Of a DNA stretch of 64,000 nt, positions 2,475 through 57,298 are shown piece by piece. This DNA comes from a virus. Taxonomy: Duplodnaviria > Caudoviricetes. Made by a program: the position numbers and the translations under genes. The notes under the pieces were generated by a model that worked only from the letters and a program-made list of their open reading frames with translations, was not told the DNA's origin and made no database searches. Positions within the stretch are counted from its first letter, which is position 1; every line of letters starts with the position of its first letter. The DNA lies in IMG/VR virus record IMGVR_UViG_3300050121_000032, positions 2,030 through 66,029 of that record; one strand, given 5' to 3'.

Positions 2475-5172
2475 TCTGAAGCTCGAAAAATTTGGCGGGT
2501 CTTTGCCGGCATGGGATGACCACCTGCTGCCAGACGGGCAGGCGGCCAGTAATCTCAATGGATACTTGTTTTCCGGCTCGCTCCAAGGATGGCGCAAGCC
2601 GAAGCTGCTCTACACCATGCAGAGCAACGCCTCGCAGTTCGCCTATCGCCTACCGATCCGCAGCCAGAACATCGCGAGCGCGATTGCGAACTTCCTCGTT
2701 AATCCGCTCGACGGCGACCAGATCACGCTGGGCGAGGAGGTCTACACCTTCCGCAACGCGATCACGCAGGCCTACGATGTGGCGATCGGAGTTACCGCCG
2801 CGGTAACCGCGACGAATTTCTTCGAGGCCATCACGATCGACAACGGCAAGAGCACAAACGCGGGGACCGCATATGGTACTGCTACCGTCGCTAATCCTGC
2901 TATCAACCAGCACACTCCGGTTACTACGAACATCCTCGCAACGGATCAGCCTCGCGTGCAGGTATTTGCACCGACCTCTGGAGCTGCCTATAACTCAACG
3001 CTTGTCGGAGAGACCACTAATGCTGCGCGCATCAACTGGACGTACAATGGAACGACTACGACAACGCTCCAAGGCGGCACCAATCTATCCTTCGATGCCT
3101 CCATTACAGGAGCTTCAACATGGCTGGAGTTCGCTGATCCAGACACAGATGTCATGCGCTCACCAGTTGTCGATGACAGCTTTGACCGCTTTTATTTTGC
3201 CTGCCCATCTGTGGCTCCAACTTATAACACCCGAGACCGGATCGAAGCCGGCCAAGCCGCTTGGCTGCTCGGCGTCCCCGCTCCCGGATGCACGCCCGGC
3301 GTCACCGTCACGGGCGGCGGATCGAGCGTAACACTCGGCTTCCCGACCTCGACCTCGGCGAACTCCGCCGCGGTTGGCGCCAACACCATCTACCTCGTCC
3401 CGATCACGCCGACTGGCGCAATGATCCTGAACGACGTCACGTTCATGCCGGCGGCTGACAGCGCCACCGCGCGCTATGCTGCCGTGCTCTACGACGATCT
3501 CAACGGCTCTCCGCACACGCTGCTGAACACCGGCACCATCACGACGGCCGTGACCGCCGGCACTGCTGCCGCGAGCCCGTTCGTCAACCCGACCGGGCTG
3601 CTGATGAACGTCCAATACTGGATTGGCATCATGATCGACAGCGGGGTGCCGGTACAATACGCCGACGACACGGGCTCGAATGGTATCGTTAGCCTCAACA
3701 CCTTCTCGAACGGCCCCGAGCCCGTCGTCAACAACCTCACGACTGGCTATGCCGACCTGCAAGTGTGGGGTGACCTGACCTCCTCTGCCGTGCAGGAAGC
3801 GCGCAGCTACGTCTACACGTACATCACGGAGTACGGCGAAGAGAGCCCGCCCTCGCCGGCCACCGTCGTTACCGGGTGGAGCAACGGGACGTGGACGATC
3901 GACCTGTTCACGCCGCCCCCCGACCAGATGGGCGTCACCCGCAACCTCGTCAGCATCCGGCTCTACCGGTCCGTGACGGCTACCGCGGGCTCGACGACCT
4001 ACTTCCAAGTCACGCCGGTGGGCGGCGATCTGCCGATCACCACGGCTGTCTACTCGGACATCATCACCGATGACGTGATCGTGTCCAACAACCAGCTGCA
4101 GAGCCAGCTCTGGACCCCGCCTCCGGAAGACCTGCAGGGCATCATCGCGATGCCAAACGGTATGGCCGTGGGATGGCGCGCGAACGAGATGTGGTTTTGC
4201 GAGCCCTACCGCCCGCATGCGTGGCCGTCCTCCTACACGCTCACCACCGAGTACCCAATCGTCGGGCTTGGCGTCAGCGGCAACTCGGTTGTCGCCTGCA
4301 CCAGTGGCTCGCCCTACATCGCCACCGGCACCTCGCCGGGCTCCATGACCGCGACCAAGACCCAGATTAGCGAACCGTGCCACTCGCGCGGCTCCATCTG
4401 GGGCAACACCGATGGCGTTTATTATGCCTCGCCGAACGGGCTGATCCTCGTGACGCAATCCGGCTCCGTGACCAACACCTCCGAACTCTGGATCACGCGC
4501 GAGAAGTGGCAGCAGCAGACGCCGCAGAAGAACGTGCGCTGCGTGCCGCTGGTGTCATCTTATTTCGCACTAGGATGCGTTCGCAATGGCGACGCATCCG
4601 CTGCGCAAGAAGGCTTCACGATTGAACTCAACGCCGCTGACGCGCAGTCGTTCTCGATCTGGCCGCAGCCCGGTGGTCACCGTCTGGGCTTCGCTCAGCT
4701 CAATGGTCCGAACGGGTTTGACGTGGTCAATCTTCGCATCGACCCATGGTCTTCTGTTTGTCTCGTCATGCAGAACCACGCGGTCTATTACTACGACTTC
4801 TCCGACCCGGCCCCGGTCATGCAGACCTACAAGTGGCGCTCGAAACTCTTCCAGCAAAAGAGCAAGAAGAACTTCGCAGCCATGCGCATCTGGTTCGACG
4901 TCCCGCCGGGAACGCCGGCACAGAACGCCGTGCGCAACACCGCGGCGCATACGGACCCGAGCTGGAGCGCTCTAGCCGCGGGCCAGTATGGCATCGTGCG
5001 CGTCTACGCCGGCGGTGTGCTGGTTACCGCGCGCGAGATTTGGAAGACGCAGGAGCTGCTCCGGATCGAGTGCGGCTTCAAGCACGAGACATGGCAGTTC
5101 GAGTTTGAGGCCCGCGTGCCGATCTCGAACATTCAGATCGCAACCTCCGTCAAGGCATTGGCCCAGACATAA
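2440..5172 (+). CDS. virion tail protein (tail tubular B / stabilization protein-like)
   Basis: 910 aa, beta-rich; YVYTYITEYGEESPPSP, FCEPYRPHAWP and WRSK motifs typical of podovirus tail/stabilization proteins; precedes ejection proteins. Confidence 0.65.
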   Translation: MPAQQTQTSPDSLKLEKFGGSLPAWDDHLLPDGQAASNLNGYLFSGSLQGWRKPKLLYTMQSNASQFAYRLPIRSQNIASAIANFLVNPLDGDQITLGEEVYTFRNAITQAYDVAIGVTAAVTATNFFEAITIDNGKSTNAGTAYGTATVANPAINQHTPVTTNILATDQPRVQVFAPTSGAAYNSTLVGETTNAARINWTYNGTTTTTLQGGTNLSFDASITGASTWLEFADPDTDVMRSPVVDDSFDRFYFACPSVAPTYNTRDRIEAGQAAWLLGVPAPGCTPGVTVTGGGSSVTLGFPTSTSANSAAVGANTIYLVPITPTGAMILNDVTFMPAADSATARYAAVLYDDLNGSPHTLLNTGTITTAVTAGTAAASPFVNPTGLLMNVQYWIGIMIDSGVPVQYADDTGSNGIVSLNTFSNGPEPVVNNLTTGYADLQVWGDLTSSAVQEARSYVYTYITEYGEESPPSPATVVTGWSNGTWTIDLFTPPPDQMGVTRNLVSIRLYRSVTATAGSTTYFQVTPVGGDLPITTAVYSDIITDDVIVSNNQLQSQLWTPPPEDLQGIIAMPNGMAVGWRANEMWFCEPYRPHAWPSSYTLTTEYPIVGLGVSGNSVVACTSGSPYIATGTSPGSMTATKTQISEPCHSRGSIWGNTDGVYYASPNGLILVTQSGSVTNTSELWITREKWQQQTPQKNVRCVPLVSSYFALGCVRNGDASAAQEGFTIELNAADAQSFSIWPQPGGHRLGFAQLNGPNGFDVVNLRIDPWSSVCLVMQNHAVYYYDFSDPAPVMQTYKWRSKLFQQKSKKNFAAMRIWFDVPPGTPAQNAVRNTAAHTDPSWSALAAGQYGIVRVYAGGVLVTAREIWKTQELLRIECGFKHETWQFEFEARVPISNIQIATSVKALAQT
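2792..2806. promoter_or_regulatory. dispersed palindrome TTACCG-CCG-CGGTAA (intragenic, VTAAV)
   Basis: exact motif match. Confidence 0.85.
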
Positions 5173-5184
5173 GGAGAAACGCCA

Positions 5185-5562
5185 GTGACCACCGTCGGAC
5201 CCGTTTGTCACATCCCGCCGAAGAACAACATCAATCAGCCGGCACCGCAGAACCTGCCGGCGATCCCGCCTGCACAGCCTAACATCCAGTCGCTGATGAA
5301 CACCGTCAACGCGCTGCGCCAAGTCGTGAACCAGCTTACCGGGCGTCAAGGGTCGCAAGGTCCAGCCGGGCAAGCTGGGGCGCAAGGTACGCCGGGCACG
5401 AGCGCCAAGGGGACATGGAGCGAACAGAACCGTCAAGAGGAGACGGTCAAAATCTACCAGAACAACGATCCCTCCACCGGCAACTATGTCGAGGTGAAGC
5501 AGATCAACAAGCTGGTGATGGAGAACAAGGACACCGGCCAGACGTGGACGTGGAATAGGTAA
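5185..5562 (+). CDS. hypothetical virion-associated protein with short collagen-like stretch
   Basis: AAGGAG RBS, GTG start; GSQGPAGQAGAQGTPG. Confidence 0.7.
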   Translation: MTTVGPVCHIPPKNNINQPAPQNLPAIPPAQPNIQSLMNTVNALRQVVNQLTGRQGSQGPAGQAGAQGTPGTSAKGTWSEQNRQEETVKIYQNNDPSTGNYVEVKQINKLVMENKDTGQTWTWNR

Positions 5563-5572
5563 AGGGACGCCA

Positions 5573-8336: not shown

Positions 8337-10171
8337 TGGCTATGGCTCCTAAATCATTTTCCGAAGACGGCGCGTTCGGTGGTAGCTCGCCGGGACAACA
8401 GCAGGACTGGGCGGGCAGCGGCAGCTCATCTTCGTCGGACCCGTTCGCAGCGTACAGCGGTGACAGCAGCCTGTCCTACGGCGGCGTCTCCAACAGCTCG
8501 ATGTCCCCGTGGGGCTCCGACCTGCAGCCGGGTCAGGTTACCAAGGGACCGAACGGACAGATTTACGGCAACATGAGCAACGGTCCCGGTGCGGTTGATC
8601 CGGGCAACGGCGCCGGCGGCTTCCGGCTGGACGCCTCCCCGTGGAACCCGTCGACCGATCCGTTCATCACCCACAGCGGTGGTATGGGCTTCGCCGAGGG
8701 CGGTGCCATCCCGGAAGACGACAGCGACACCGGCACGCCCATGCAGCCCGCAGAGGACGATGCCACCGGCGTGAATGAACAGGTCGCCAGCCAGAGCCAG
8801 CCGCAGCAGCCCCAGCAGGGACAGCAGTCGCCGGGCTCGGATGGTGGACCGCTCAACCCGGTACCCGCGGCCAAGAAGATCATCGCCTACCTGATGGGCG
8901 CCGGTGCCGCACACCCGCAGAGCATCGACCAAGTTGGCCAGCAGGTCGACCCGGAAGGCAAGATGCCCCCCTCGGATCGCAACGTGCTGGCCATCGACAA
9001 GGTGCGCGAGACCCACGGCGATAATGCCGCGTGGTCGCTGATGCAGGCCAACCGCGTCGCCTACAACGCCAAAGCCGCGTTCGCCAAGACCGCGCTCGAT
9101 GGCACGCCGCAGAAGCCGGCTGACCTCAACGCGGCGGTCGACGCTGCCAATCAGGCGCAGACCCATGTGCTCGACGGCTCGAACGTGCTGTTCCAGCCCG
9201 CGCAGGGCGGAGTTACCGCCACGGTAAAGCTGCCCGGCAACTCGGAGCCGCAGCAGATCGCGCTCTCGCCGCAGGCCTTCAAGTCGTTCCTCGACGTCGG
9301 CGGCGACGGCCAGTGGGACAAGGTCGTGGATCACAGCGCGCCCGCCACGCTGGAGCGTCTCGCCAAGCAGTACCCGATCCAGCAGGGCCAGCCTCAGCAA
9401 GGATCACCGCAGCAGGGCCAGCCTCAGCCGGGAGCCCAGCCGCGCCCGCCGGTGCGCAATCCCGTGCCGGCTCCGAACCAGCCGGTCTTCTCGCGCGGTC
9501 CGACCACGTTCGGCAAGACGCCGTCGACGCTCAACCTCTCGGGCAGCGACGAGCGTGGCGAGGACATCAAGGCGCCGAACACCGACATCAGCCCGGAGAT
9601 CGAGGCCCGCGCGCGGCAGCTGTACCCCAGCGCTTCGCAGAGCGCCGAGCGTAACAAGTACATCGCCGGCGAGGTGACCAACGAAGCCAGCAACGAGAAC
9701 AAGATCGACGTGCAGAACGCCAAGGGCGACTTCGGCCTCAAGATCGCAGGCGTCAAGACGGAAGGGGCCAAGGCCGTCGGTGCCGGCCACGACACCGCGA
9801 AGGTCCAGTCGTCGCAGAACTTCAGTCAGGCGCGCATCGAAGCGGCCAAGCAGAAGTTGCAGTCGGCCGCGCTGCACGAGGAAGCCGTCAACGGCCGCAA
9901 CGCGATCACGCAGTCGATGCGCGGGCTCGTCGCCAAGGTGAATGCGGGCCAGAAGCTGAACCCGAACGAGCAGGGTATCTGGGATCGCGTCGTGCAGCAC
10001 ACGCCCGACCCGTCAGCAGCTGCGCCCCAACAGGCTCAGCCTCAGCAGCAGAATAACTCCTTCCCGGCGGCGCCGCCTGATCCGGCACAGCGCAAGGTCG
10101 GTCAGGTCTATTCGTCGCCCACCGGCAAGCGTGGGAAGTGGATGGGTAACGGCTGGCAAGCGGTGCAGTAA
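8333..10171 (+). CDS. internal virion (ejection) protein, Gln/Pro-rich
   Basis: 612 aa; GFAEGGAI motif; C-terminal KWMGNGWQ element; position before the giant ORF. Confidence 0.65.
   Translation: MMAMAPKSFSEDGAFGGSSPGQQQDWAGSGSSSSSDPFAAYSGDSSLSYGGVSNSSMSPWGSDLQPGQVTKGPNGQIYGNMSNGPGAVDPGNGAGGFRLDASPWNPSTDPFITHSGGMGFAEGGAIPEDDSDTGTPMQPAEDDATGVNEQVASQSQPQQPQQGQQSPGSDGGPLNPVPAAKKIIAYLMGAGAAHPQSIDQVGQQVDPEGKMPPSDRNVLAIDKVRETHGDNAAWSLMQANRVAYNAKAAFAKTALDGTPQKPADLNAAVDAANQAQTHVLDGSNVLFQPAQGGVTATVKLPGNSEPQQIALSPQAFKSFLDVGGDGQWDKVVDHSAPATLERLAKQYPIQQGQPQQGSPQQGQPQPGAQPRPPVRNPVPAPNQPVFSRGPTTFGKTPSTLNLSGSDERGEDIKAPNTDISPEIEARARQLYPSASQSAERNKYIAGEVTNEASNENKIDVQNAKGDFGLKIAGVKTEGAKAVGAGHDTAKVQSSQNFSQARIEAAKQKLQSAALHEEAVNGRNAITQSMRGLVAKVNAGQKLNPNEQGIWDRVVQHTPDPSAAAPQQAQPQQQNNSFPAAPPDPAQRKVGQVYSSPTGKRGKWMGNGWQAVQ
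9213..9227. promoter_or_regulatory. dispersed palindrome TTACCG-CCA-CGGTAA (intragenic, VTATV)
   Basis: exact motif match. Confidence 0.85.
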
Positions 10172-13100
10172 TGGCTGACGACTTGATGTCTGACAGCGAC
10201 TTCGGCTTGCAGTCCGACGAGCAGTTCATGGGCTCGCAATCGGCTGGCGGGAACACTATGTCCGACAAAGAGTTCGGACTGATGTCTGATGACGACTTCA
10301 TGGGAGGCCCGAATGGCGCTTCTGCAGCAGCCCCTGACCAAGGAAATGGCCAAGCAAATGGAGCACAGCCTTCAGGTGTGGCGCCTGAAGGTCCTGTTGC
10401 ACGAGGAGTTCGCAACGTCGCCCACGGCGTTGCTCCCGCCGTGGGGGGATACATGGGCGCCGTTCCCGGAGCAGAAATCGGAGCAAGTATCGGTGCAGCT
10501 GCCGGTCCGATCGGTGCCGCAGTCGGCGGTGTTGCAGGCGGATTGGTCGGTGCATTCGCGGGTGGTTTCGCCGGCGAAAAGGTAGCGCACGTAGTTCAGG
10601 ACGCCACGGGCTTCAACGACGACGAGCAGATGGCGGCCAACGTCGAGGCCCACCCGACCGAGGCCGCGATCGAGGGCGCCATCCCCGCGTTCGCCGGCAT
10701 GCGCTTCGACAAGGGCGCAACTGCGCTGGCGCGCGCCGGCTCCGCAGCTCTACAGGGCGGCATCGACGTCGCACAGCAGGCACAGAACAAGGGCTGGAGC
10801 AACATCGACCCGGCCGAGGTGCTGGCGGTCTCCGCTGCCGGCGCTGTGCTGCCGTCAACAAATCGCCTTGGTGAAGCCGTAAGCAACGTCGGTCGTCGCA
10901 TGGTACCGGGACGCCCCGGGCGCGCGGCGAACCCCGCAGCTGAGGTCGCACATCAGGATGTCGGTGATGACAGTGTCGAGACTGCGGTCGGTGATAGCGT
11001 TCTTGCGGAGAGCCCACCCCATGCCTCTGGAGAAACGATCGGCGCCGCGGTGGAGAACCGCCCGACTAATTCGCGTGGCGAAGTCGCGACCGGCAAGGCC
11101 GACGGCAGCTATGCCAAAGGCGGTGCGCCGGCGGACACCAGCCAAGTCACGTCCGGAGATGTGGACCCAGCAACGGCGGCTGCACTGGACGCAGCTAATC
11201 CCTCCCCGGCTCCGCAAGCACAACCAGCGCCGCAAGCCCCTGCACAAGCCCAGCCGCCGACCCAACGCCCGCTAGGGATGCCGGCGCGGAATTTCCGCGT
11301 CCCGACGCCAGACGACGTTCAGGCGGCGCTCGATCGGCATACGGCCGCCACCGAAGGCAAGGGCCCCGAGCCCGTCGTCGAGGCAGGCTTCCCGGAAGAA
11401 GGTGCCCCGGTCGCAGCCGGAGCCAACGACGTCGCTCCCATGCCGCACGATATGGCCGATCAGGTGCAGGCGGCGATCGAGCGCCACACTGCCGCAACTG
11501 AAGCGCCGAAGCCCGAGACCGAGGCCCCGCCGATCGTCGGCCGTGCTGCTGACCCTACCGAGGCCCAGAAGGAAGCCGGCAACTACACGCTTGCCCGCAT
11601 TCCGAAGAATGACTTCGGCAAGCCGCAGGCCGTCGAGACGCATCAGGGTCAGGTCCGCAGTGGCAAGGATGCCAACGGCGAGCCGTGGGAGAACACGTCG
11701 CCCTATCACTATGGCTACTTCAACAAGACGAAGGGGCCCGATGGGGACCACATCGACTTCGCGCGGCCCGACGAGAGCGATCCCGCGTTCGGCAGCAAGC
11801 ACTTCATCATCGACCAGAAGGACCCGGCCACCGGCAAGTACGACGAGCCGAAGGTGTTCACCTATGTCAAGGACAAGGACGCCGCGATCGACCTCTACAA
11901 CCGCAGCTTCTCCGACGGCAAGGGGCCGGAGCGCATGCACGACATCACTGAGGTCGAGCGGCCGCAGCTGGTGAAGTATCTCGCCAAGCACACCAACAAC
12001 CCGCCGAAGGGTCCCTACGGCGAGCCAATCCAGAAGGCCCCCAAGTCCGTCAAGGACAAGGCCGTCTTCAAGGACCTTGTCGCCAAGAAGCCCGAGCTGG
12101 CCGAGGCGTTGCAGAACGCCCCTGACGATGTCGTGGCCAAGGCGATCGAGGGCAAGCGGCTGCGCAAGTACGGCGTGGCCACTGGCAGCTCGAACGGTTA
12201 TCCGGTCGAGGGCATCCTCAACTCCGAGGGCAAGCTGATCACCGCCAACACCAAGGCGAAGGCGGCCGAGCGCACTGCTGCGCACAAGGCGCAGGTGGAC
12301 TGGTTCAACAAGAGCGCCCCCAAGGGTGATCCTGCCGTCGAGAGCAACGGCGATCTGCTTCAGCGGCTCAAGGGCGCCAACGTCGAAGGATGGCAACCCT
12401 CGTTCAAGCCGAAGGAGTGGATGCTGGCGCGCGAGGCCAAGAAGGTGATGGTCAAGCCGACGCCGGGCAACATCGCGAAGTACCGCGAGGCCGAGCGGCT
12501 GCTCCGCGGCGGCGACGAAGCCGTGCAGAATTACCGTGACAGTAACCGCACCGAGGCCGACATCGCGATGTCGAAGCGATCGGGTGATGACGCGGTCGCC
12601 GGCGCCGAGGCCAAGAACGTCGACCTCGGGCGCAACACCGAAGAGGACAAGCTGATCGAGGCGATCGACGCCAAGCGCGGCGGCCGGTTCGACGTGCCGC
12701 ATGAAGAGGCCGAGGGGATGGTGAAGCCGCGCCAGATCAAGACGGCTGCGGACATTAAGGAAGCGCCTCAGAAGGAAGTCCACGTCAACGACAGCGAGCT
12801 GGCCAAGATCGACCTCAAGAAGGTCGACGAGAGCGCGGCCGCGAAGCGTCGTGCCGAGGCTGCAGCGTTGGTCGGTAAGAAGACCAAGCAGGCCGACATC
12901 CCCTCCGAGGACCGCAGGACCAAGGGCATCTCCGTCAAGGATAAGTTCAACGACCCCGAGGTGCTCGCCAAGATGATCGAGGCGTCGAACAAGGCCGCCA
13001 AGAAGGGCGCTGCGCACGAGGAGGACCTCAACCGCGAGGACCTGACCAAGCAGGCCAGCGGCCGGCCGCGCTTCAACGAAGTGGCGCGTCTGTTCGGCGA

Positions 13101-15506: not shown

Positions 15507-15521
15507 TTACCGTGGCGGTAA
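15507..15521. promoter_or_regulatory. dispersed palindrome TTACCG-TGG-CGGTAA (intergenic, just upstream of an RBS)
   Basis: exact motif match. Confidence 0.85.
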
Positions 15522-16750: not shown

Positions 16751-19700
16751 CGCACAGCTCCCTGTACGAACGCCGCGACACTCGCCGCGGTCGCGAGCCC
16801 GTTACCGTCCACGGTAAGTCCGGTCTCGATCTGCTCGTCGACGATCTCGACGCCAGCCTCGATCTTCACCTTCTCCTCGGGCGCGGTGAAGTTGATCATG
16901 TATTCCCACAGCGGCGTGTTGGGCTTGATGTTCAGCACGAGGCAGTGCTCACGCAGCGGCGGGTGGGACGTGCCCGACAACAACTGCAGCTTCTGCTGGG
17001 TCATGCCGAACTCCTGACGCATCGAAGCGAAGACCTGCGCGTCGGAGAACTTCATCTTGACCAGCCAGTCGCTGAAGTCGCGCGAGGCGATCACCAGCTG
17101 GTGATTGGCGATGGCGAACCGGAACTCGATGCCGCCCTGCATGTTGGTGGGTTGGGTCGGACCCCGGATGATCTGCACGGGCTTGGGCGGCCGGCCCTTC
17201 TCGTTGTGCATGTAGTTCGTCCAGATGCCGCGCGCCGCCGCCTCACGTTCTTTAAGGTAGCGGGCCAGCACGTCCTCACTGTTGTCGATCTCGCCGCCCT
17301 GTGCGTACTGCTCGCGCGCCACGATGTTCTCGTTGTAGACCTTGTACATGAAGTCCTCGGTCTGGTCGGGGTCGACATCGAGCCCCAGCTGCTTGGCGTA
17401 CTTCGCCGCCAGCGTCATGATGGCCACGGTCGTGATCCAGTAGCGCTCCGACTTCTTGCCACCAGACTTGGACTGCACCTCGTTGCATTTCAGCCGGAAC
17501 TCCTCGGCAATCGCCGCATGGTTCTGGGCCAAGAATTTCGCATACAGAAGCCCCATGTGGCCGAAGTTGCGGTTGGTGCCCGACAGCAGCATCTCGGCGT
17601 CGGCATCGTTCAGCTGGCCGGGGCCACCGTTGATCCGCTTCACCTCCCACTCCAGCACCCGCATCTGCGAGGCGGTCGTGTTGAGGTTGTCCTTGCGCAG
17701 GAAACTGACGAGGCTGTCATTGGCGAGGTAGTGCAGCATCAGCTGGAACATGCCGACTTCCTGATGCTGTTTGCCGTCCTTCATGCGCGACTTCTCTTTG
17801 CCGCCATCCAGCTCGTGCATCACCGTCTTGAACTTCTTCCGCATCTCGTCGTCGGTGATCTCGTCCCAGTAGAAGGGGAGATGCCGCAGTGTCTTCATCA
17901 TGCTGGCGATGCTGTTGGGTGTCGCACGCTCGGTGATCTTGGTCGCGAGAGGATGGCCCCAGACAGAGAGCCCGATACGGCTCGCCGATGACTTGCCGGC
18001 GCCGCTGTCACGCCCGTAGGCGGAGAGCACCGCGGTGTTCTTGCCGTTGAGGTACAGCAGCGGCGAGGCGAAGGCCATGAGCAGGATCGTGTTCAGCTCG
18101 GCGCGCTTCTGCCCGGTGATGACCGTCGTCGCCTTCATCCAGTCTTCCATGGTGCCGGTCGGTGTGTACATCTGGACGAAGGTGGGGTCGACTGCGCCGC
18201 ATGGGCGCTCGGTCCCGTCGTCCATGAAGATTTTGCCGCCGTAGGCGAAGCCTCGTACCTTGCCATCTTCCTCGTGCCAACCGAATGGGATCGTCTGTTG
18301 TGCTGCCGCGTGGGCTCGCAATTTGCCGATGGTGCTCAAGAAAAACTCCTTCAGGAACCGTTCGCCTCTGATGTCGATCAGGACCCGCTTCTGGCTGAGG
18401 TACGCCGAGAAGCCCTGCTTGCAAACTTCGCCCATGTCCACCGACACCTGATCCTCAAACCCCTTGTCCATGGACGCGGTGAAGTTCAGGTGCTCGCCGG
18501 GGTGCTTCTGCAGCCAGAACCCTTTGAGCTGGCATTGGAACAGCGGGATCATCGCGGTGTTGAGTTCACCGTCCTTCTCGATCTCGATCACTTTACAGAT
18601 CAGACCGTCGTCATTCAACTCGAAGCTGGCGGGCAGCATCGAGGCAGCGGCCGCCGGCGACTGCACCGCGGGGCTTACCGTCGCGGTAACCGGCGTCGGT
18701 CTTATGTTGAGCGGTGATTTGCCCTTCGCGAAGAGCGGGCACGACGCGCACGATTTGCAGCCAGCGCCCTGAATGGTTGCACAAGAGGGATATCCAATTC
18801 CGCGATCATGTCGCTCAGCCATCTTGCGATCGTAGAGCGCCTGTGTGTCAGCCGCGGAATACGATGGGTGTCCCTGTGATATCCGGTGCGCGATGTCATT
18901 GCCGTTCTCCATGAAGGTGCTGCAGAGCACGGAGTACATCCACAGCGGCTGGTCGTAGTCCCGGCCTCCGGTGGTCAGGGCTTCGCGCAGGAAGCCGCAC
19001 TGGCGGAAGATCGGGAACGGGTCGAGCAGGTTGTCGGCGTTCTTGTTGATGCCGGCGTCGAGGCCGGGCTCACCCTTGAGGGCAGCGAATAGCGGGTGCG
19101 GCTTGCCGAAGGTGGCGAGCGTCACACCCTCGGCGAAGATCGAGGGAGCCGATGACTGCACATGTGCAGGACCGGCAACGGCGAACTGCTTCAGAAAATC
19201 CAGCTGGGCGAAGTCGTACATAGCCAGCGGCAGCGGGGCGAGCGTCACCTCGCGCGGCGGGTCGTACTTGTGATTGAGGGTGCCCGGCACCCGCAGGATG
19301 CGGGCGATGTCGGTGGTCAGGCCAGTGTCGCACTTGATGGCGTTAGCGAGGAGCAGCTGCTTCAACCCGCTGGCGTATGGGAGCCACTCTGCTGGCTGCA
19401 GGGGCGTCTTGCTGATCCAGTAGATGTGGAGCCCGCCGCCAGAGCGCACGATGGCGCTGGGCGTTGGCAGCTTCACGGTCTTGGCAAACAACAGGATGCT
19501 CTTAAGAGCATCCTCCTCGGTGCCGTAATGCTTGGGGTCGTTGGCCTTGACGTCGCAGTCGATCCAGATCGCCTTCTGGGCGATGGCGTTGGATGCGAGC
19601 CGCACCGCCTTCGGCTTGCCCTTTTTGTTGACGCCGGCCGTTGACTGCAGCGATGTGCAGAACCAGACGTCCTTGAACTTGTTGCCGGCGACGATCCAGC

Positions 19701-20268: not shown

Positions 20269-21438
20269 TTAAGCCTTCGGCAGGAGGGCCGCTACGCGCG
20301 CATCGAGCAGAGCATCCGTCTCCTCGGGCTCGCCGGTGTCGGCGACCGTGTTCAGCTCCGCAGCTGCTACGGTCTGGACGGGCTGCTCCACACCGAACCC
20401 GGTGTCGATCGCGGCGCCAGCCGATGCAACAGGCCCAGCACTTACCGTCCCGGTAAGCGCGCCGAACCCGGTGTCGACATGAGCGGCCGCGGCAGCTTCC
20501 TCGGCGGCCTTGCGGGCAGCTTCGGCTTTGGCAGCAGCTTCAGCAGCAGCAGCCTTGGCGGCAGCTTCAGCAGCGAGCTTCGCAGCAGCGTCAGACGCAG
20601 CCTTGGCCACACGAGCAGCTTCGACAGCGGCAGCGTCCACCACGTTGCCAGCGGGCGTGGCAGCGGTCGCAGCAGCAGCCGGGCGGTGCGCCCCGATCTC
20701 GGTCTCGCCGGTGATGCGCAGCGACAGCGGGTCGTCACGCATGGGCAGGACCAGCGGGGCTTCCTTGTCCGTCAACGCCTGCAGGGCCCGGAAGGTCATC
20801 TGCGGGTGCGGCTTCTCGGGGTTGAACCCGATCCGCGTGATGAAGGACGCGAAGTGGAAGCCCTGTGCCGCCATGCCTTCACCCAGCAGGGCAAGGTCGT
20901 TGAGCGATGCAGCGGGCACGCGCAGGAAGACGGGCTCCATGAGCGGGGCGCCCAGCAGACGCGCGGTCAGGCTCGGCAGGACCAGCACAGCCAGACGCTT
21001 GTAGTCGGAGCAGTCGCGGGTCTTGCGGCCGTCCGGGTTCACCTTGAACACGTTCTTGGGGCAGATCGCGCAGGCCGTGGACTGCGGCGTGGCGATGTCG
21101 GCGTCGGGCGTGACACCGTCGAGCGCCGCGCAAACCGGGCGCGTACCGATAGCGCCGTCGGAGTACGTGCCCGGCGGGTAGTAGCTCTTCGACTTGTTCG
21201 GTAATTGTCTCAAGACAATTACGTCTAAAAAAGCAGCCGGCGAGCCGTCATCGGGGCGGGTGAAGGTATAGGTCTCACCGCGCAGGCGGAGCGTCCAGAC
21301 TTTGCCCTTATAGCCGATGATGCCGTAGCTCGAACCGATACCATCGGCCAAGCTCTCGGAGTGCGGGTCCAGTGCAGCGAACGCTGCAGCGGGCGCCATG
21401 CCTTTGAACGCGGAGATGTTCATCATATCAGTAGACAT
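20269..21438 (-). CDS. conserved replication-module protein (possible ssDNA-binding protein)
   Basis: CAICPKN...C Zn motif, acidic Ala-rich C-terminus, position between helicase and primase. Confidence 0.55.
   Translation of the reverse strand: MSTDMMNISAFKGMAPAAAFAALDPHSESLADGIGSSYGIIGYKGKVWTLRLRGETYTFTRPDDGSPAAFLDVIVLRQLPNKSKSYYPPGTYSDGAIGTRPVCAALDGVTPDADIATPQSTACAICPKNVFKVNPDGRKTRDCSDYKRLAVLVLPSLTARLLGAPLMEPVFLRVPAASLNDLALLGEGMAAQGFHFASFITRIGFNPEKPHPQMTFRALQALTDKEAPLVLPMRDDPLSLRITGETEIGAHRPAAAATAATPAGNVVDAAAVEAARVAKAASDAAAKLAAEAAAKAAAAEAAAKAEAARKAAEEAAAAAHVDTGFGALTGTVSAGPVASAGAAIDTGFGVEQPVQTVAAAELNTVADTGEPEETDALLDARVAALLPKA
20442..20456. promoter_or_regulatory. dispersed palindrome TTACCG-TCC-CGGTAA (intragenic, LTGTV)
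   Basis: exact arm match. Confidence 0.8.
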
Positions 21439-21460: not shown

Positions 21461-21475
21461 TTACCGCGGCGGTAA
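21461..21475. promoter_or_regulatory. dispersed palindrome TTACCG-CGG-CGGTAA (intergenic, 1 nt after a stop)
   Basis: exact motif match. Confidence 0.85.
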
Positions 21476-21963: not shown

Positions 21964-23511
21964 CTACGCTGCGCCGGTGGCTTCTCCCAACATCTCCAGC
22001 AGCATGTTCTGGACCTTCTCTTTTCGCTGCAGGAGGGCGTATATTTTCTTCTCCACTGGTGTGGACTGGAGGTGGAGGATTTTCTGTTTGTAGCGTTGCC
22101 CGACGCGCGTGATGCGGGCGTTAGCCTGCTCGTAGATTTCGAGGCTCGTGATCGGGAGATACCAGATGATGGTGTCGGCGGCCGTCAGCGTCAGACCGTG
22201 GGCCACACAAACCGGATGCGCCAGCAGCACCTTGTATTTGGTCGTGTGCTGGAACAGGTTGAACAGCTCGCCGCGTCCGGACACATCTCCGTGAACGATA
22301 GCGTGCTCGATCCCGGCGGCTTCAAGAATTGGTGATAGGCCTTCGATGGCATGGCGGAAGGGGACATAGACGATCACCTTGCGCTCGTTTTCGTTGATCA
22401 GGTCGACCAGCATCTGGTGGCGTGGCATCGGCTCGTCTGGCTTGAAGACTGGGATCGCCCCGAGTGGATTGGCGTAGACCCAGCCGCCGCTCACCTGCAG
22501 CAACTTGCCCATCGCCACGGCCGCATTGACTGCCGTGACTTGCCCGCCAGCCACATCGGCTTTGAACTCGGTCGCCAGCGTCTTGTAGACCTTGCTCTGC
22601 AGTGGGGTCATCGGCACGTCGATGGTGCGCGAGATTACCTCGGGCAGCTCCACCACGGCATCCAGATCGAACCGCACGTTTGGCTGCAGCATGCGCATGG
22701 CACGCTCGATCGCCTCAGGCTTCGGCACCCACTTAAAATTGTTGATCTTGTTCATCAGCATTTCCTGCGCCTGCCGGAAATACTTTGGTGCGGTGTTGGG
22801 CGTCACGATCTTGGCCTGCGCCCAGACGTCGGTAGGTTCGTTGGGCATCGGTCTTCCAGTGAGGCCCCAAACAATCTTGAAGCGTTCGGCGAATTTTCGC
22901 ATATGCTTGGAACGATCCGAATTATTGCGGTAAACAGCAAGCTCATCAAGACAAAGCACGTCAATGTCAGTGCGGAGGCTAAGCTCGGCCGCGATCGTCT
23001 TGAGCCCGTCGTGGTTGATGACGTAGATGTCGGCGTCGGAGGCGAGGGCTTCGAGCCGCTTTGCTTTTGTGCCATGGAGGATTGCTACCTTTATATTGGG
23101 CAGGGTCGAGAACGCCTCGGCCTGCCATACGAACCGGAGCGTCGAGAGGGTGGCCACAACGAGCATCTTGCCGCAGTAGCCCTTACCGTGAAGGTAATCC
23201 CAAGCCCACAGCGTGCTCTTCGTCTTGCCGGTCCCCATCGAGTTGAGGACGTAGCTGCGCGGCGCGGTCGTCATCATGTCCATCGTGCGCCGCTGCACGG
23301 CGAACGGCTTGACGTGTCCGAAGTCGTAGTAGCACAGCATCGGGTTCGGCACCTTGTGCCCCAGATGCCGCAGCATGATGGTCTCTTGCAGGCCGTGCGG
23401 CACCACCAGAGCAGCATCGTCCAACGACAACGCACTCGGGAACATGTTCTCGGTCTTCGGATCGCGTGGGATCACGAGGGCTTGGTTGGGCCGGGAGATT
23501 TTGATACTCAT
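21964..23511 (-). CDS. SNF2-like (superfamily 2) DNA helicase
   Basis: MGTGKT, LDE, LTGRP, GLTLTAA and QANARITRVGQ motifs. Confidence 0.9.
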   Translation of the reverse strand: MSIKISRPNQALVIPRDPKTENMFPSALSLDDAALVVPHGLQETIMLRHLGHKVPNPMLCYYDFGHVKPFAVQRRTMDMMTTAPRSYVLNSMGTGKTKSTLWAWDYLHGKGYCGKMLVVATLSTLRFVWQAEAFSTLPNIKVAILHGTKAKRLEALASDADIYVINHDGLKTIAAELSLRTDIDVLCLDELAVYRNNSDRSKHMRKFAERFKIVWGLTGRPMPNEPTDVWAQAKIVTPNTAPKYFRQAQEMLMNKINNFKWVPKPEAIERAMRMLQPNVRFDLDAVVELPEVISRTIDVPMTPLQSKVYKTLATEFKADVAGGQVTAVNAAVAMGKLLQVSGGWVYANPLGAIPVFKPDEPMPRHQMLVDLINENERKVIVYVPFRHAIEGLSPILEAAGIEHAIVHGDVSGRGELFNLFQHTTKYKVLLAHPVCVAHGLTLTAADTIIWYLPITSLEIYEQANARITRVGQRYKQKILHLQSTPVEKKIYALLQRKEKVQNMLLEMLGEATGAA

Positions 23512-35812: not shown

Positions 35813-35827
35813 TTACCGTGACGGTAA
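35813..35827. promoter_or_regulatory. dispersed palindrome TTACCG-TGA-CGGTAA (intergenic; arms extend to AGGTTACCG/CGGTAACCT)
   Basis: exact motif match. Confidence 0.85.
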
Positions 35828-36547: not shown

Positions 36548-36664
36548 TCACCAACACTTGGTGATGACATGAAGTGCGATGTAACCCGCACCACCGAAGA
36601 TCACGGCCATGCACGTGAGATAGGCGATGGTGGCCGCAATGAACACTTTGTCGTCCCCAATCAC
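36548..36664 (-). CDS. small membrane protein (38 aa, not in ORF track)
   Basis: GTGA overlap; VFIAATIAYLTCMAVIFGGAGYIALHVITKCW. Confidence 0.55.
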   Translation of the reverse strand: MIGDDKVFIAATIAYLTCMAVIFGGAGYIALHVITKCW

Positions 36665-37424: not shown

Positions 37425-37439
37425 TTACCGTGGCGGTAA
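37425..37439. promoter_or_regulatory. dispersed palindrome TTACCG-TGG-CGGTAA (encodes LPPR-stop of the upstream gene)
   Basis: exact motif match. Confidence 0.85.
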
Positions 37440-39866: not shown

Positions 39867-39881
39867 TTACCGCGGCGGTAA
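39867..39881. promoter_or_regulatory. dispersed palindrome TTACCG-CGG-CGGTAA (intergenic)
   Basis: exact motif match. Confidence 0.85.
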
Positions 39882-41781: not shown

Positions 41782-41991
41782 ATGTCCGAAGCCCTTAAAC
41801 GCCTCACCAGATGTGGCCGCTGCGGCGACTGGTTCTATCGCTGCCCGCACATCGGAGTGCCGGTGAAAATGGCCGACGAAGAAGCCGAGCGCGTCCGGGC
41901 CCGCTACGCGATCGGCCGGCGGCTCAATCCGGAGCATGACGTGACCAGTTACCGTGACGGTAAAGACATAGGAGACCCCAATGTGGTTTGA
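41782..41991 (+). CDS. small hypothetical protein (CxxC)
   Basis: CGRCGDWFYRC. Confidence 0.5.
   Translation: MSEALKRLTRCGRCGDWFYRCPHIGVPVKMADEEAERVRARYAIGRRLNPEHDVTSYRDGKDIGDPNVV
41949..41963. promoter_or_regulatory. dispersed palindrome TTACCG-TGA-CGGTAA (YRDGK, just upstream of the next RBS)
   Basis: exact motif match. Confidence 0.85.
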
Positions 41992-43837: not shown

Positions 43838-43896
43838 CACCGGACAAAACGTCGCATCTATTCGAGAGGCAGTCGCGTCACGGGGAAAAAACAAAA

Positions 43897-45000: not shown

Positions 45001-45722
45001 CCGACCACGTCGACACAGGCTTCGACGCAGTGCTCGCCGGCGAGGTGTGGACCCCGCCGGAAGAGCCGCAACCAACCATCACCATATCTGAAGCGCCACC
45101 GCAGGAGCCGCACACCTGCGCGAACGCGCATGGCGGCACCACCTGCGACGTCTGCTTCGGCCCAGTTACCGCGACGGTAACTCCCGGCCTCACCCCCGCC
45201 GGCGTGCAGGCCGCGAAGGCACTCGTCCAGCTGCCGCCCTTGTCGCCACCCGATCTGGCGAAGCTCGCGCGCGAGATGGCGATGGACATCAAGGAGCGCT
45301 CCGCGATCCTCACCGAGTTCAAGCTTAGCGAGACCCAGTATGACTTCCTCGAAGCGAACAACGAGTTCTACAAGGCCGCGCTCCACGCCGCCTGCATCGA
45401 GTGGCACGCTCCTCTCTCCACTCAGGAGAGGATTAAGGTTGAGGCTGCAGCGATCCTCGAAGACAGCCTCCCCGGTCTGGGCGCTCGAATGCAGAACAAA
45501 GGGGAAGGCCTACCCGGGGTTATCGAAGCTGCTAAGCTATTTGCAAAAGTCGCCGGTGTTGGTGAGCGAGAAGTTGGGCCGGGAAATTCTGGCGAACGTT
45601 TCGTTATTAACATTGACCTCGGCGGAGACCAAAAAATTACCGTTGAAACGGCGCCAGCTCCGACAGCGGCTGTTCAATCGGATCATGTGCGCGCGCTTCC
45701 GAAGGACGGAGGCACGTCGTGA
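44997..45722 (+). CDS. putative terminase small subunit
   Basis: Helical core, C-terminal GERFVINIDLG strand; upstream of TerL. Confidence 0.55.
   Translation: MTDHVDTGFDAVLAGEVWTPPEEPQPTITISEAPPQEPHTCANAHGGTTCDVCFGPVTATVTPGLTPAGVQAAKALVQLPPLSPPDLAKLAREMAMDIKERSAILTEFKLSETQYDFLEANNEFYKAALHAACIEWHAPLSTQERIKVEAAAILEDSLPGLGARMQNKGEGLPGVIEAAKLFAKVAGVGEREVGPGNSGERFVINIDLGGDQKITVETAPAPTAAVQSDHVRALPKDGGTS
45166..45180. promoter_or_regulatory. dispersed palindrome TTACCG-CGA-CGGTAA (intragenic, VTATV)
   Basis: exact motif match. Confidence 0.85.
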
Positions 45723-52722: not shown

Positions 52723-54759
52723 ATGCCGAAGCCATCGGTCTGTCTGAACATGATCGTCAAGAACGAGAGCGCCCGCATCGAGCGGGCCCTCGCCTCGGTT
52801 ACCGCCACGGTAAAAGTCATCTTCCTCCACGACACCGGATCGACTGACGACACCATCGCCAAGGCCTACGAGTTCGCCGACGCGCACAACATCCCGATCC
52901 ACGTCTCGTGCGGGACCTTCGAGAATTTCTCGCAAGCGCGCAACGAAGCCTTCCGGATAGCCAAGACCATGAACGGCGCCGGTGATCTGCCGTGGTGCCA
53001 GTTCGCGCTGCTGATGGACGCCGACATGGAGCTGGTGGTCGAGGCGCCCTCGGTCTTCCACAAGCTCAAGGCTACCGCCGTCAGCTATGACATGATGCAG
53101 AAGGGCGGCACGGTCTCCTACATGAACCGCCGGCTCGTCAACCTGCAGACCGGCAAGGACGACATCTATGTCGGCGTGACGCACGAATACATCGACCTGC
53201 CGGCTTACGGCCTGATCAGCGGCGCCATGTTCGTCGACCACGCCGACGGCGCCAACCGGACCGAGAAATACAAGCGCGATGCCCAGCTGCTGGAGGAAGA
53301 CCTCCGCACCAACCCGAACAACGGCCGCTCGCTGTTCTATCTCGGCAACTCCTATGCCGACTGGGGCCTAGCTGACAGCACTGTGCTGCCGTATGCGATC
53401 GACGCCTACACCAAGCGGATCACGCTGGGAGGCTGGGACGAGGAGACGCATCAGGCGATGATCAGCCGGGCTTCGTGCGAGCTGCGGCGTGACAATCCAG
53501 CCCGTTTCGTGCAGGGTATGGTCGAAGCCTACAACTTCCGGCCATCCCGGGCCGAGCCGCTCTATGAGCTGGCGAAATACTATCGCGAGAGGGGCGACCA
53601 CGCCGCGTCCCTGCTGTTCTCCAAAGCCGGCGTCAACATCCCAAGACCCAACGATGTCCTTTTTGTTAACGACTTTGTCTACTCTCACGGTCTGCGTTAT
53701 GAGTACGCTGTTGAGGGATACTACGACGAGGCGGAGCGCAATCGCGCGTTTCAGGTTACGGATGACCTCGCACTCGATCCAACATGCCCGGCGGACCTCC
53801 GCTGGAGCGCGCGCTCGAACCTCTACTGGTTCACGAAGCCGCTGAGCCACTACTGCGGCAGCTTCAAGGATCGACAGATCAACTTCCTGCCGCCCCGCGG
53901 CTACACCGCGATGAACCCTTCGATCGAGGTCTGCAACGGCAAGATCAAATGCAACGTGCGCGCGGTCAACTACAAGATCGACGAGCACGGCCGCTACATG
54001 ATCGGTGACAAGGGGTGCCAAGAAGCCCCGATCGACACCCGAAATTTCGTGCTGACGCTGGACGACAGTCTCGATACGCAGAAGGTGAGCGAGGTGATCT
54101 GGCACCGCCCCGAGGCCACGTTCCCGCTGGTCACCGGGCTCGAAGATATCCGGCTGTGGCGCTTCCACGGCGAGATGTACTTCACCGCCACCGTGCGTGA
54201 GCAGAACTATCACGGCCATTGCCAGATGGTGCAGGGCAAGCTCGTCCACGACATCGACGACAAGTACATGATGGTCGATGACTGGAAGGTCATCTCCGAC
54301 GGCGACAAGCCAGAGAAGAACTGGATGCCCATGCCGGCCAACGGCGGCGCTCCGCGCTTCATGTATCGCTGCGACACCGTGACCATCCCAGAGGGTCTCA
54401 AGCGCGTGGCGACGGTCCATCCGGTCAAGATCGACGTCAACAACATCAGCGGCTCTTCGCAGCTGATCGAGTTCAAGAGCGGCCTGCTGGGCATCGTCCA
54501 CGAGGCCGCCACCGGACCCGACGGCAAGCGCACCTATTGGCATCGCTTCGCATGGTTCGAGAAGGACGGCATGTTGCGCCGGCTCTCGCTGCCGTTCGTG
54601 TTCCTCGATCGGCAGATCGAGTTCTGCGCCGGCCTCGCGTACCACCCCAACCGCAACGACCTGATCATCTCATTCGGCGTGCGCGATGCCGAGGCCCATC
54701 TGGCCACCGTGTCGATCGAGGAAGTTGCAATGATGTGCTGGAAGTTCCATGAAAACTAA
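52723..54759 (+). CDS. GT2 glycosyltransferase + TPR + C-terminal beta-propeller (glycosidase-like) domain
   Basis: CLNMIVKNE, DTGSTDDT, NFSQARN, DAD, GVTHEY; TPR-like helices; NPSI, GLEDIRL, EKNWMP, IEFCAGL. Confidence 0.88.
   Translation: MPKPSVCLNMIVKNESARIERALASVTATVKVIFLHDTGSTDDTIAKAYEFADAHNIPIHVSCGTFENFSQARNEAFRIAKTMNGAGDLPWCQFALLMDADMELVVEAPSVFHKLKATAVSYDMMQKGGTVSYMNRRLVNLQTGKDDIYVGVTHEYIDLPAYGLISGAMFVDHADGANRTEKYKRDAQLLEEDLRTNPNNGRSLFYLGNSYADWGLADSTVLPYAIDAYTKRITLGGWDEETHQAMISRASCELRRDNPARFVQGMVEAYNFRPSRAEPLYELAKYYRERGDHAASLLFSKAGVNIPRPNDVLFVNDFVYSHGLRYEYAVEGYYDEAERNRAFQVTDDLALDPTCPADLRWSARSNLYWFTKPLSHYCGSFKDRQINFLPPRGYTAMNPSIEVCNGKIKCNVRAVNYKIDEHGRYMIGDKGCQEAPIDTRNFVLTLDDSLDTQKVSEVIWHRPEATFPLVTGLEDIRLWRFHGEMYFTATVREQNYHGHCQMVQGKLVHDIDDKYMMVDDWKVISDGDKPEKNWMPMPANGGAPRFMYRCDTVTIPEGLKRVATVHPVKIDVNNISGSSQLIEFKSGLLGIVHEAATGPDGKRTYWHRFAWFEKDGMLRRLSLPFVFLDRQIEFCAGLAYHPNRNDLIISFGVRDAEAHLATVSIEEVAMMCWKFHEN
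52799..52813. promoter_or_regulatory. dispersed palindrome TTACCG-CCA-CGGTAA (intragenic, VTATV)
   Basis: exact motif match. Confidence 0.85.
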
Positions 54760-56608: not shown

Positions 56609-56827
56609 ATGCAGCGCCAGAGCATCAAGCCCATGGGTACCGGTGCCCCGAAGACCGTACCCACTCCGGGCGCGGTCTCCTCGGTCGGTCCCTCGGGCGC
56701 GGCTCCCAAGCCCCGGATGAAGAACACCCGGGACTACGGCAAGCAGGCTCCGGCGGCGCAGCCGCTGGCACCCTCCCCGAACCCGTTCGGTCCGACCGAA
56801 GGTGGCTCGCGGATCGGAGGAATTTGA
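56609..56827 (+). CDS. small Pro-rich hypothetical protein
   Basis: Coupled ORF; DYGK. Confidence 0.6.
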   Translation: MQRQSIKPMGTGAPKTVPTPGAVSSVGPSGAAPKPRMKNTRDYGKQAPAAQPLAPSPNPFGPTEGGSRIGGI

Positions 56828-56828
56828 G

Positions 56829-57047
56829 ATGTTCAAGAAGCACATGACGCCGATCGGCATCCACAAGAAGGGCACGCTGGACAACACCCCGGATAAGGGC
56901 TCGTCCCAGCGCGACCTCCCCGCAGCGGCCACCGGCGGCGGCCCGTCCAGTTTTCAATCCTACGGCAAGGCAACCCCAATGGCCCAGCCGGCACCCGCCC
57001 CTGACGGGCTCGGGTCCGGAAGCTGGCCCGGAAACGCAATCGCTTGA
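56829..57047 (+). CDS. small hypothetical protein
   Basis: GGAGG RBS; MTPIG and SYGK resemble the upstream gene. Confidence 0.65.
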   Translation: MFKKHMTPIGIHKKGTLDNTPDKGSSQRDLPAAATGGGPSSFQSYGKATPMAQPAPAPDGLGSGSWPGNAIA

Positions 57048-57298
57048 CAGCCCCAATTCACCTCATAACGGCCCACTACCTGCAGTCCCTCCGCGTTGCG
57101 GCGCCCAAGGAATACGAGGCGTTCGTCGAGGCGTTTGACGCATGGGCGACCGAAGTTACCGTGGCGGTAACCACCGCCCCGCAGGATCAGGTCCTGCAGC
57201 AGCAGGGCCGCGCGCAGGCCTACCTGCACCTGCTCAAGATGTTCCGAGACCCAACCAACCATCTCCAACAGCAGCAGTCCAACCCGCCCTCGGCCTGA
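57044..57298 (+). CDS. conserved small head-module protein
   Basis: QQQGRAQAYLHL motif typical of pre-scaffold proteins. Confidence 0.7.
   Translation: MTAPIHLITAHYLQSLRVAAPKEYEAFVEAFDAWATEVTVAVTTAPQDQVLQQQGRAQAYLHLLKMFRDPTNHLQQQQSNPPSA
57156..57170. promoter_or_regulatory. dispersed palindrome TTACCG-TGG-CGGTAA (intragenic, VTVAV)
   Basis: exact motif match. Confidence 0.85.

Follow-up and report, generated by a model that had tools for sequence, protein, structure and literature searches.

A TTACCG-YNR-CGGTAA palindrome array in a phage family, respelled between lineages and lost together with a five-gene early module

We examined a 64,000-nucleotide window, the whole stretch of DNA analysed here (bases 2030-66029 of the 66,029-bp IMG/VR virus record IMGVR_UViG_3300050121_000032, rated complete by CheckV), from a soil phage of the Caudoviricetes in which a 15-bp palindrome, TTACCG-YNR-CGGTAA, recurs both in and between genes (Table 1). 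Our own codon-log-odds caller gave 92 genes, and 51 open reading frames (ORFs) of the window, corresponding to 50 of the 92 gene calls, were scanned against Pfam. A rightward virion and tail arm extends to approximately 16.5 kb and is followed by a leftward replication arm (16.5-40.3 kb) with genes for a DUF927 primase-helicase, endonuclease VII, an SNF2 helicase, MazG, a PD-(D/E)XK nuclease, a dGTP_diPhyd_N protein, a DUF4406 protein, DNA polymerase A, a DUF2201/VWA protein, an ATPase and Nmad5. Beyond a control region of about 1 kb lies another rightward arm with small genes, terminase, portal, a glycosyltransferase cassette and capsid. No integrase or CI-type repressor was recognised among the ORFs scanned, in agreement with an earlier reading of this sequence (hereafter the original prediction), which had reported the palindrome as a candidate operator or DNA-marking system.

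A total of 20 TTACCG-N3-CGGTAA copies were observed in the window, each at the position originally reported, and none in 100 dinucleotide-preserving shuffles, which bears out the earlier estimate of far less than one copy by chance. Fifteen of the 20 lie between 15507 and 41949. When the whole record was searched, a 21st copy was observed 308 bp ahead of the window, and the reversed control pattern gave no match. An unbiased palindrome census of the record (6-bp arms, gaps of 0-9) placed TTACCG-N3-CGGTAA first with 21 copies and the runner-up at 4, and a search of the window allowing up to two mismatches returned 24 matches against a shuffle mean of 1.04 and a largest shuffle count of 5. The near-copies at 12531, 23183, 24339 and 31186 each carried one mismatch, and the copy with a 4-nt spacer at 16802 was also found. 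As had been described, the spacer reads Y-N-R in 19 of the 20 copies (the exception, TCC, is at 20442) and has G or C at its centre in 19 of 20 (the exception, TAG, is at 29772).

Seven copies of the record were intergenic and 14 lay inside called genes, a split that is approximate because the called starts are uncertain. Permuting synonymous codons within each called gene 1000 times left 0.44 in-gene copies on average and never more than 2, compared to the 14 observed. Eleven of these 14 occupy a single frame, xTT ACC GNN NCG GTA Axx, encoding V-T-[AV]-[TA]-V. The window genome contains 13 peptide contexts able to spell the motif in this usual frame, and 11 of them do so where codon usage would predict 0.013, indicating that the DNA word dictates the peptide and not the reverse. 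The G or C at the spacer centre falls on the third base of a codon in a genome of 62% G+C, and the Y-N-R form was also kept at all 7 intergenic copies, so this rule belongs to the site. We conclude that the array is genuine and that selection acts on its DNA sequence.

Table 1. Palindrome copies, near-copies and early-module genes in the window (positions in window coordinates; occupancy among 14 genomes with and 3 without an array).
Feature	Position	Strand	Context or occurrence
Palindrome copy	2792..2806		inside gene 2440-5172 (+), codon phase 1
Palindrome copy	9213..9227		inside gene 8336-10171 (+), phase 1
Near-copy, one mismatch (CAGTAA arm)	12531..12545		inside the 1768-aa gene
Intergenic copy	15507..15521		29 nt past stop of 10171-15477, 16 nt ahead of start 15538
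Variant with 4-nt spacer	16802..16817		
Palindrome copy	18675..18689		inside DUF927 primase-helicase gene (-), phase 1
Palindrome copy	20442..20456		inside gene 20269-21438 (-), phase 1; sole non-Y-N-R spacer (TCC)
Intergenic copy	21461..21475		1 nt past upstream stop, 22 nt ahead of start 21438 (-)
Near-copy, one mismatch	23183..23197		inside SNF2 helicase gene
Near-copy, hybrid TTACTG/CGGTAA on sense strand	24339..24353		same hybrid in G006, G007, G009, G013
Palindrome copy	25865..25879		3' end of 25821-26129 (-), 25 nt ahead of start 25839
Palindrome copy	26656..26670		45 nt past PD-(D/E)XK nuclease stop; called 5' end of 26393-26692 (-)
Palindrome copy	27910..27924		3' end of 27893-28315 (-), 16 nt ahead of start 27893
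Intergenic copy	28541..28555		abuts stop of 28556-29029; 13 nt ahead of start 28527 (-)
Palindrome copy	29772..29786		inside DNA polymerase A gene (-), phase 2
Near-copy, one mismatch	31186..31200		inside DNA polymerase gene
g41, 232 aa	31477..32175	-	13/14 with array (miss: TM27A), 0/3 without
Intergenic copy	32259..32273		between DUF2201 gene and g41
g42, DUF2201_N + DUF2201 (VWA-like)	32276..33583	-	14/14 with array, 0/3 without
g43, 80 aa	33833..34075	-	10/14 with array, 0/3 without
g44, small acidic, isoelectric point (pI) 5.0	34065..34517	-	13/14 with array (miss: incomplete contig G014), 0/3 without
Intergenic copy	34535..34549		between ATPase gene and g44, 17 nt ahead of g44 start
g45, ATPase, phrog_1297	34603..35751	-	13/14 with array (miss: incomplete contig G014), 0/3 without
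Intergenic copy	35813..35827		between Nmad5 gene and ATPase gene
g48, 238 aa, pI 9.3, all-helical	36661..37377	-	13/14 with array (miss: incomplete contig G014), 0/3 without
Palindrome copy	37425..37439		last 3 letters are stop of 37425-37772 (-); 47 nt ahead of g48 start
Intergenic copy	39867..39881		near divergent control region
Palindrome copy	41949..41963		start of rightward arm, inside doubtful 42-aa ORF
Palindrome copy	45166..45180		inside 44997-45722 (+), phase 1
Palindrome copy	52799..52813		inside GT2-domain gene (+), phase 1
Palindrome copy	57156..57170		inside 57044-57298 (+), phase 1

The nearest cultured phages were the Rhizobium phages RHph_TM27A, TM27B, TM29 and TM3_14A, with 57.7% identity to the window over 79% of the query for the portal protein and 38.8% for the polymerase. 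A portal search of IMG/VR returned 136 related stretches, from which 15 long relatives were taken whole and the unbiased palindrome census repeated. Together with the window phage (G000) and TM27A these relatives (G001-G015) made 17 genomes, 14 with an array and 3 without. The window phage holds 21 copies of TTACCG-YNR-CGGTAA, and the same palindrome was dominant in nine relatives (G005-G010 and G012-G014) with 12-19 copies each. Other members were dominated by a different spelling: (T)TACTG-N3-CAGTA(A) in G001 (15 copies), TTACGG-N3-CCGTAA in G002 (18 copies) and GTTACCG-RNY-CGGTAAC in G011 (18 copies, with full arms in 18 of 18). TM27A contained no TTACCG-N3-CGGTAA, having instead 26 copies of TTACC-N6-GGTAA and 8 of TTACC-N5-GGTAA, many directly ahead of start codons. 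No dominant palindrome (0 copies) was observed in G003, G004 and G015.

We projected the in-gene sites of the window onto the relatives by protein alignment and compared the orthologous positions. At the position of 9213, 10 of the 16 relatives have a site in their lineage's own spelling, nine of the TTACCG type and TTACTG..CAGTAA in G001. The positions of 45166 and of the copy 308 bp ahead of the window both read TTACGG..CCGTAA in G002, as does the position of 18675, where G001 has a one-off TTGCTG..CAGTAA. The position of 57156 reads TTACTG..CAGTAG in G001 and again TTACGG..CCGTAA in G002. An identical copy of 29772 was observed in six relatives, the site at 52799 was not present in any relative, and TTACCG genomes keep TTACCG at the projected positions. 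Judged from these alignments, orthologous sites (the -308 copy, 9213, 18675, 45166 and 57156) are converted in place, in both arms, to the spelling of their lineage. The arm position that switches is the third base of ACN and of NCN in the usual frame, so the respelling is silent. Several TTACCG genomes retain hybrid TTACTG/CGGTAA copies, a sign that the switch may have passed through a tolerant intermediate. With a spelling that is uniform within each genome, differs between sister lineages and occupies conserved positions, the array is a family trait.

All 1,458 called proteins of the 17 genomes were clustered to find genes that accompany the array. Five families, g41, g42, g44, g45 and g48, were confined to array genomes, with none in the three array-less genomes (Table 1), and all five are packed into 6 kb immediately following the polymerase gene in the window genome and in G005 alike. 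The g45 protein had no Pfam match and no sequence match in PDB at E <= 1; we term it a putative MoxR-like AAA+ ATPase by analogy, from its pairing with the VWA protein g42. A literature search by title and opening of the abstract gave nothing on the function of DUF2201.

Terminase, portal, SNF2 helicase and polymerase were used to build a quick IQ-TREE phylogeny with midpoint rooting, in which the array-less genomes G003, G004 and G015 formed no clade and G004 grouped with G005 and G012/G014 (support 95). Well-supported branches force at least two changes of array state, and array and module thus appear to have been lost together in at least two independent events. The orthologous site positions in G004 hold decayed sequence; this decay in a module-less genome, taken with the joint losses, indicates that sites persist only as long as a genome keeps the module. 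The ATPase/VWA pair itself is common in N4-like phages, and 422 phage records match g42. In the N4-like phage LIT1 the pair stands beside helicase and polymerase genes and the census found no dominant palindrome, so the pair alone does not explain the array. At the place of the module, G004 has two large genes (L212:7637-10682) of 547 and 469 aa that match no Pfam family, lack relatives among the remaining 16 genomes and may functionally replace the module, and the genes at the same place in G003 include one for a DUF932 protein.

Among the candidate binding proteins named in the original prediction, the product at 36661 (g48) is the one that stood up, as a member of the module with a modelled homodimer. 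The dimer model scored 0.61 compared to 0.00 for the best control; among solved homodimers 20 of 30 attain this mark, and among monomers 1 of 23. The runs shared at least 92% of contacts with a partner predicted local distance difference test (pLDDT) of at least 82. These values support a predicted g48 homodimer. Foldseek found no PDB match at E <= 0.001 for the full-length g48 model (pLDDT 83); BFVD matches were two uncharacterised phage proteins. No PHROG family and no PDB relative were found, and Pfam searches with 11 and 80 family members gave nothing meaningful (for the 80, no match at E <= 0.01).

The g48 family comprises 321 clusters at 50% identity in public metagenomes (E <= 0.001), none with an annotation. 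Its member in TM27A lies at 18372-19100 of that record. In all 22 viral loci retrieved with the g48 profile the commonest palindrome with 5-bp arms was of the TTAC type. TTACC-N6-GGTAA ranked top in 7 of the 9 loci of a distant subfamily (6-21 copies), and the other two had TTACC-N5-GGTAA (3x). Within g48 the stretch DTQ[VI]K was kept in all TTACCG-YNR genomes, with DVLIK as its counterpart in G002, DSWSK in G011, DTQAK in G001 and DSLPK in the N6 subfamily.

Residues invariant across the nine TTACCG-YNR genomes were also scored for change in the respelled genomes, with counts given for G001, G002 and G011 in that order. The highest share was observed in g44, with 6, 4 and 2 of 12 changed, followed by g48 with 11, 14 and 11 of 59; the polymerase had 15, 22 and 20 of 233 and the portal 10, 13 and 16 of 404. 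The g41 sequence is very divergent (27-37% identity); its model (pLDDT 85) had no PDB match by Foldseek at E <= 0.001, and its PDB sequence profile gave nothing below E 0.8. The remaining candidates of the original prediction fared poorly. The family of 41291 occurs in only 5 of the 17 genomes and 26284 has matches in only three. The winged helix-turn-helix (wHTH) protein given there as 43897 (43834-44478 in our calls) was rejected as the reader, since it is present in two of the three array-less genomes, G003 and G004. This protein has an OmpR/CtrA-type winged helix (Trans_reg_C, residues 119-190) without a receiver domain, and its presence in array-less relatives marks it as a regulator of something other than the array.

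The reading we prefer, with a probability of roughly 0.6, is that the palindromes would be docking sites on double-stranded phage DNA for a two-fold symmetric protein encoded in the five-gene early module. The proposal that a dimeric protein binds the palindromes is thereby upheld indirectly, by the single spelling per genome, the concerted change of both arms, the decay of sites on loss of the module and the g48 homodimer model. We tentatively name the basic, probably homodimeric g48 as the reader, at somewhat under even odds, with g41 or a g44 complex as alternatives. A g48 dimer would dock on the palindromes and tether the ATPase/VWA machine to the chromosome every 2-4 kb. A more doubtful step is to assign such tethering to a genome-wide task linked to replication and not to ordinary control of promoters; it is proposed because N4-like phages carry the ATPase/VWA pair in the replication module without an array and the pair is here lost together with the array. 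A duplex site would be placed where it costs least, between genes or in the mildest reading frame. In the 14 array genomes 114 of 236 sites lay in the usual frame, 25 in a second open frame, 10 ended on a stop codon and 87 were outside called genes, in DNA that makes up approximately 8-10% of the genomes (a 3-4x enrichment).

Several observations weigh against this docking model or parts of it. The five module genes were always lost together, and so the comparison cannot single out the reader. Neither g48 nor g41 has a recognisable DNA-binding fold: the best VIA match of g48 (Z 6.8) covers a C-terminal helical hairpin only, and the best of g41 across VIA reached Z 4.1. Residues 27-28 of the DTQVK stretch lie in the modelled g48 dimer interface and may not touch bases, and 0 of the 59 g48 columns were changed in both G001 and G002. 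The correlation of g48 residues with motif is confounded by descent, the N5 and N6 types forming two clades. The gaps between sites were significantly even in only 7 of 13 genomes, which do not include the window phage (coefficient of variation 0.72, P 0.09). Site density was three times higher in the early arm, and 46 of 189 sites (12 genomes) lay within 60 nt upstream of a start, 30 of these at 15-29 nt, a placement that, with the early-arm density, is no less compatible with control of transcription or translation than with a role in replication. On the sense strand the spacer was biased, with 99 C-rich and 57 G-rich forms, which a purely symmetric duplex reader does not predict, although codon choice may explain it.

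These placements would suit an array of operators or roadblocks, in which an early dimeric repressor bound between early genes shuts off or paces read-through by the host polymerase, in the manner of the Cluster A mycobacteriophage stoperators, and the in-gene sites of the late arm are weaker by-products or pause sites. Fifteen of the 21 sites lie in the early/replication arm, the sites close to starts stand just before the ribosome-binding site, the share of sites outside called genes is high, and g48, g44, g45 and g41 are each preceded by a site, making autoregulation possible. We nevertheless regard this explanation as unlikely. The phage looks lytic, with no integrase or CI-type repressor recognised in the 51 ORFs scanned, the sites are palindromic and not oriented, and some that are conserved in position lie deep in large virion genes (9213, 57156). 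The loss of the array together with an AAA+ ATPase and a VWA protein would not be expected of a simple repressor.

The same positions 15-29 nt ahead of start codons, and the modest bias in the sense-strand spacer, would also suit an RNA or single-stranded DNA hairpin (a 6-7 bp stem with a 1-3 nt loop) read by a sequence-specific factor, either as a processing or translation signal before ribosome-binding sites or as a signal for lagging-strand priming or loading. The arm changes between lineages, from C-G to T-A to G-C, keep the pairing, and the stem and loop sizes resemble those of the hairpin promoters of the N4 virion RNA polymerase. In TM27A the 3' arm of the palindrome (A/GAGGTAA) stands 2-4 nt ahead of start codons at 20437, 24206, 33750 and 39303 of its record, where it probably doubles as the ribosome-binding site, and the 5' arm (TTACCTCC) resembles the anti-Shine-Dalgarno sequence. 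The types of mismatch do not favour an mRNA hairpin, however: 21 of the 57 one-mismatch copies were G-U-compatible on the sense strand, 14 were A-C and 22 non-pairing, with no enrichment of G-U. An element selected for structure only would covary site by site and not converge genome-wide on one spelling, no Rfam family matches the palindrome, and a giant virion RNA polymerase was not recognised: by Pfam, the 1768-aa protein, the largest encoded, has an InPase domain only. We consider a hairpin very unlikely as the basis of the array.

Modification and restriction systems typically switch specificity from one close relative to the next, and the palindrome could in principle be where a sequence-specific modifying, nicking or restriction-like enzyme acts to mark the phage's own DNA. 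The replication arm encodes MazG (23767-24114), a dATP/dGTP diphosphohydrolase N-terminal domain (dGTP_diPhyd_N, 28556-29029), DUF4406 (nucleoside deoxyribosyltransferase-like, 29022-29471) and Nmad5 (35849-36430), genes often linked to modified DNA. As a set these hint at non-canonical or modified nucleotides in the phage DNA, and no PurZ-like protein was seen among the ORFs scanned. Nothing in our analysis points to the DNA-marking role that had been suggested for the palindrome: searches of the module turned up neither a DNA methyltransferase nor a nuclease domain, Nmad5 has matches in only 3 of the 16 relatives, and restriction targets are usually avoided and not enriched. To our knowledge, a 15-bp site with 7-bp half-sites is also far longer than known modification sites. 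The chance that the array is such a target seems to us slim.

The original prediction had also described the palindrome as an undescribed system. For the sequence, our literature searches listed no paper on a TTACCG array; the full-text matches listed for the two half-sites were primers and unrelated motifs, and dispersed-palindrome keywords listed nothing on this family. The description does not hold for the kind of element. Arrays of a single exact palindrome across the genome are on record from a few phage groups. The kind is in print for the Cluster O mycobacteriophages (PMC4351075). In the available passages of that report, Corndog and its relatives carry 34 invariant copies of a 17-bp repeat, TGTTCGG-N3-CCGAACA, per genome of approximately 70 kb, in a mix of short intergenic, near-5'-end and deep in-gene sites, with the intergenic copies concentrated in one transcription arm, positions conserved among relatives and no copy in the host genome (PMC4351075). 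The authors propose a dimeric binding protein, think a transcriptional role unlikely, which if carried over to our phage would count against a roadblock, and leave the function open (PMC4351075). Of published cases, this repeat comes closest to the array. Both elements have arms of about 7 bp around a 3-bp spacer (here 6 invariant bp plus a Y/R seventh around one free base), and tens of copies genome-wide, in and between genes, at positions common to relatives. Sequence, host phylum and virion type differ, and no mycobacteriophage was present among 33 phage records with a portal match. Lineage respelling, array-less relatives and a linked gene module were observed here and are absent from the passages on Cluster O.

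Likenesses to other dispersed sites were less complete. The stoperators of Cluster A mycobacteriophages (L5 gp71, Bxb1) are 20-30 copies of one short site spread over the genome and read by one phage protein, with spellings that differ between subclusters; they are asymmetric (13-14 bp), oriented with transcription and almost only intergenic, and serve the immunity repressor of a temperate phage. The present array is similar in having one short site in 20-odd copies genome-wide and a spelling that varies among lineages. It differs in being a perfect palindrome with two thirds of its copies in genes and a spacer bias that is modest (99 vs 57), and in a phage where no integrase or HTH immunity repressor was recognised among the 51 ORFs scanned. 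The conserved inverted repeats (CIRs) of the Streptomyces phage phiC31 (NC_001978) are sites of repressor c at the early promoters of a temperate phage. They too are palindromes of similar length at many places in a genome, in that case bound by a phage protein. A protein-atlas lead that placed g48 in the phiC31 repressor family (score 0.80) was rejected, as hhalign with an 80-member alignment gave a probability of 0.2%, and the two families are unrelated. The matS sites of enterobacterial chromosomes (5-bp arms around R-N-Y), read by MatP, and the OB sites of IncP plasmids, read by KorB, belong to cellular and plasmid systems, in which a dimeric reader with a coiled-coil part serves organisation or global control and not a single promoter. 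These are likewise dispersed short palindromes with a short spacer. Our scan of 51 ORFs turned up no MatP or KorB domain and no ParB-type domain (ParBc/HTH) of the kind found in ParB/parS and Noc/NBS systems.

Building on the docking model, we also put forward a more speculative reading, one we think improbable, in which the array would act as a lineage barcode. The g48 dimer would recruit the AAA+/VWA machine only to DNA bearing its own 15-bp address, reserving replication or another genome-wide step for self. Co-occurring sister lineages would then escape each other's machinery by silently respelling approximately 20 addresses while the reader changed too. If true, the barcode would do for phages what incompatibility groups do for plasmids, under diversifying selection. 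The present family offers handles beyond the Cluster O case, namely respelling at the same positions, natural knock-outs of array and module, and a cultured member, TM27A. The g48 family is large and unannotated, so that solving its role would name a common phage protein, and solving the reader may explain the AAA+/VWA pair in the replication modules of N4-like and related phages.

A block of small genes at 37425-39867, mostly without homologues in the 16 relatives, was observed to be bounded exactly by two palindrome copies, and several other sites lie at borders of conserved and variable genes, e.g. 28541 and 35813. Such borders raise the question of whether the sites are recombination hot spots or scars through which related phages shuffle cassettes, with no role in the infection cycle; the available part of the Cluster O paper also reports indels bounded by its repeats (PMC4351075). 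Many borders between conserved and variable genes have no site, sites inside core genes are retained at fixed codon positions, and genome-wide respelling with co-loss of the module would need a trans-acting reader. We find this explanation barely credible for the array as a whole.

A scan of bacterial sequences for GTTACCG-N3-CGGTAAC returned at least 120 stretches. Among the matches listed (approximately 80) all but one hold a single site, and they come from taxonomically scattered genomes; the stretches listed give no sign of a host regulon. A second palindrome of the window, ACCGG-N5-CCGGT (7 copies compared to 0.14 expected; 51696-51710 and 61130-61513), was considered as another site system and rejected as a coding artefact, as all copies sit in period-9 Gly-X-Thr (collagen-like) coding repeats. 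An inorganic pyrophosphatase (InPase) domain occupies residues 464-604 of the 1768-aa virion-arm protein (10171-15477); such an activity is unexpected in what is presumably an ejected or tail protein. The gene for a protein with a GT2 glycosyltransferase domain (52723-54759) lies between the portal and capsid genes. Four sequencing-sample matches, none of them RNA, were listed for the phage, all assembled contigs, with three from peat and one from a pond.

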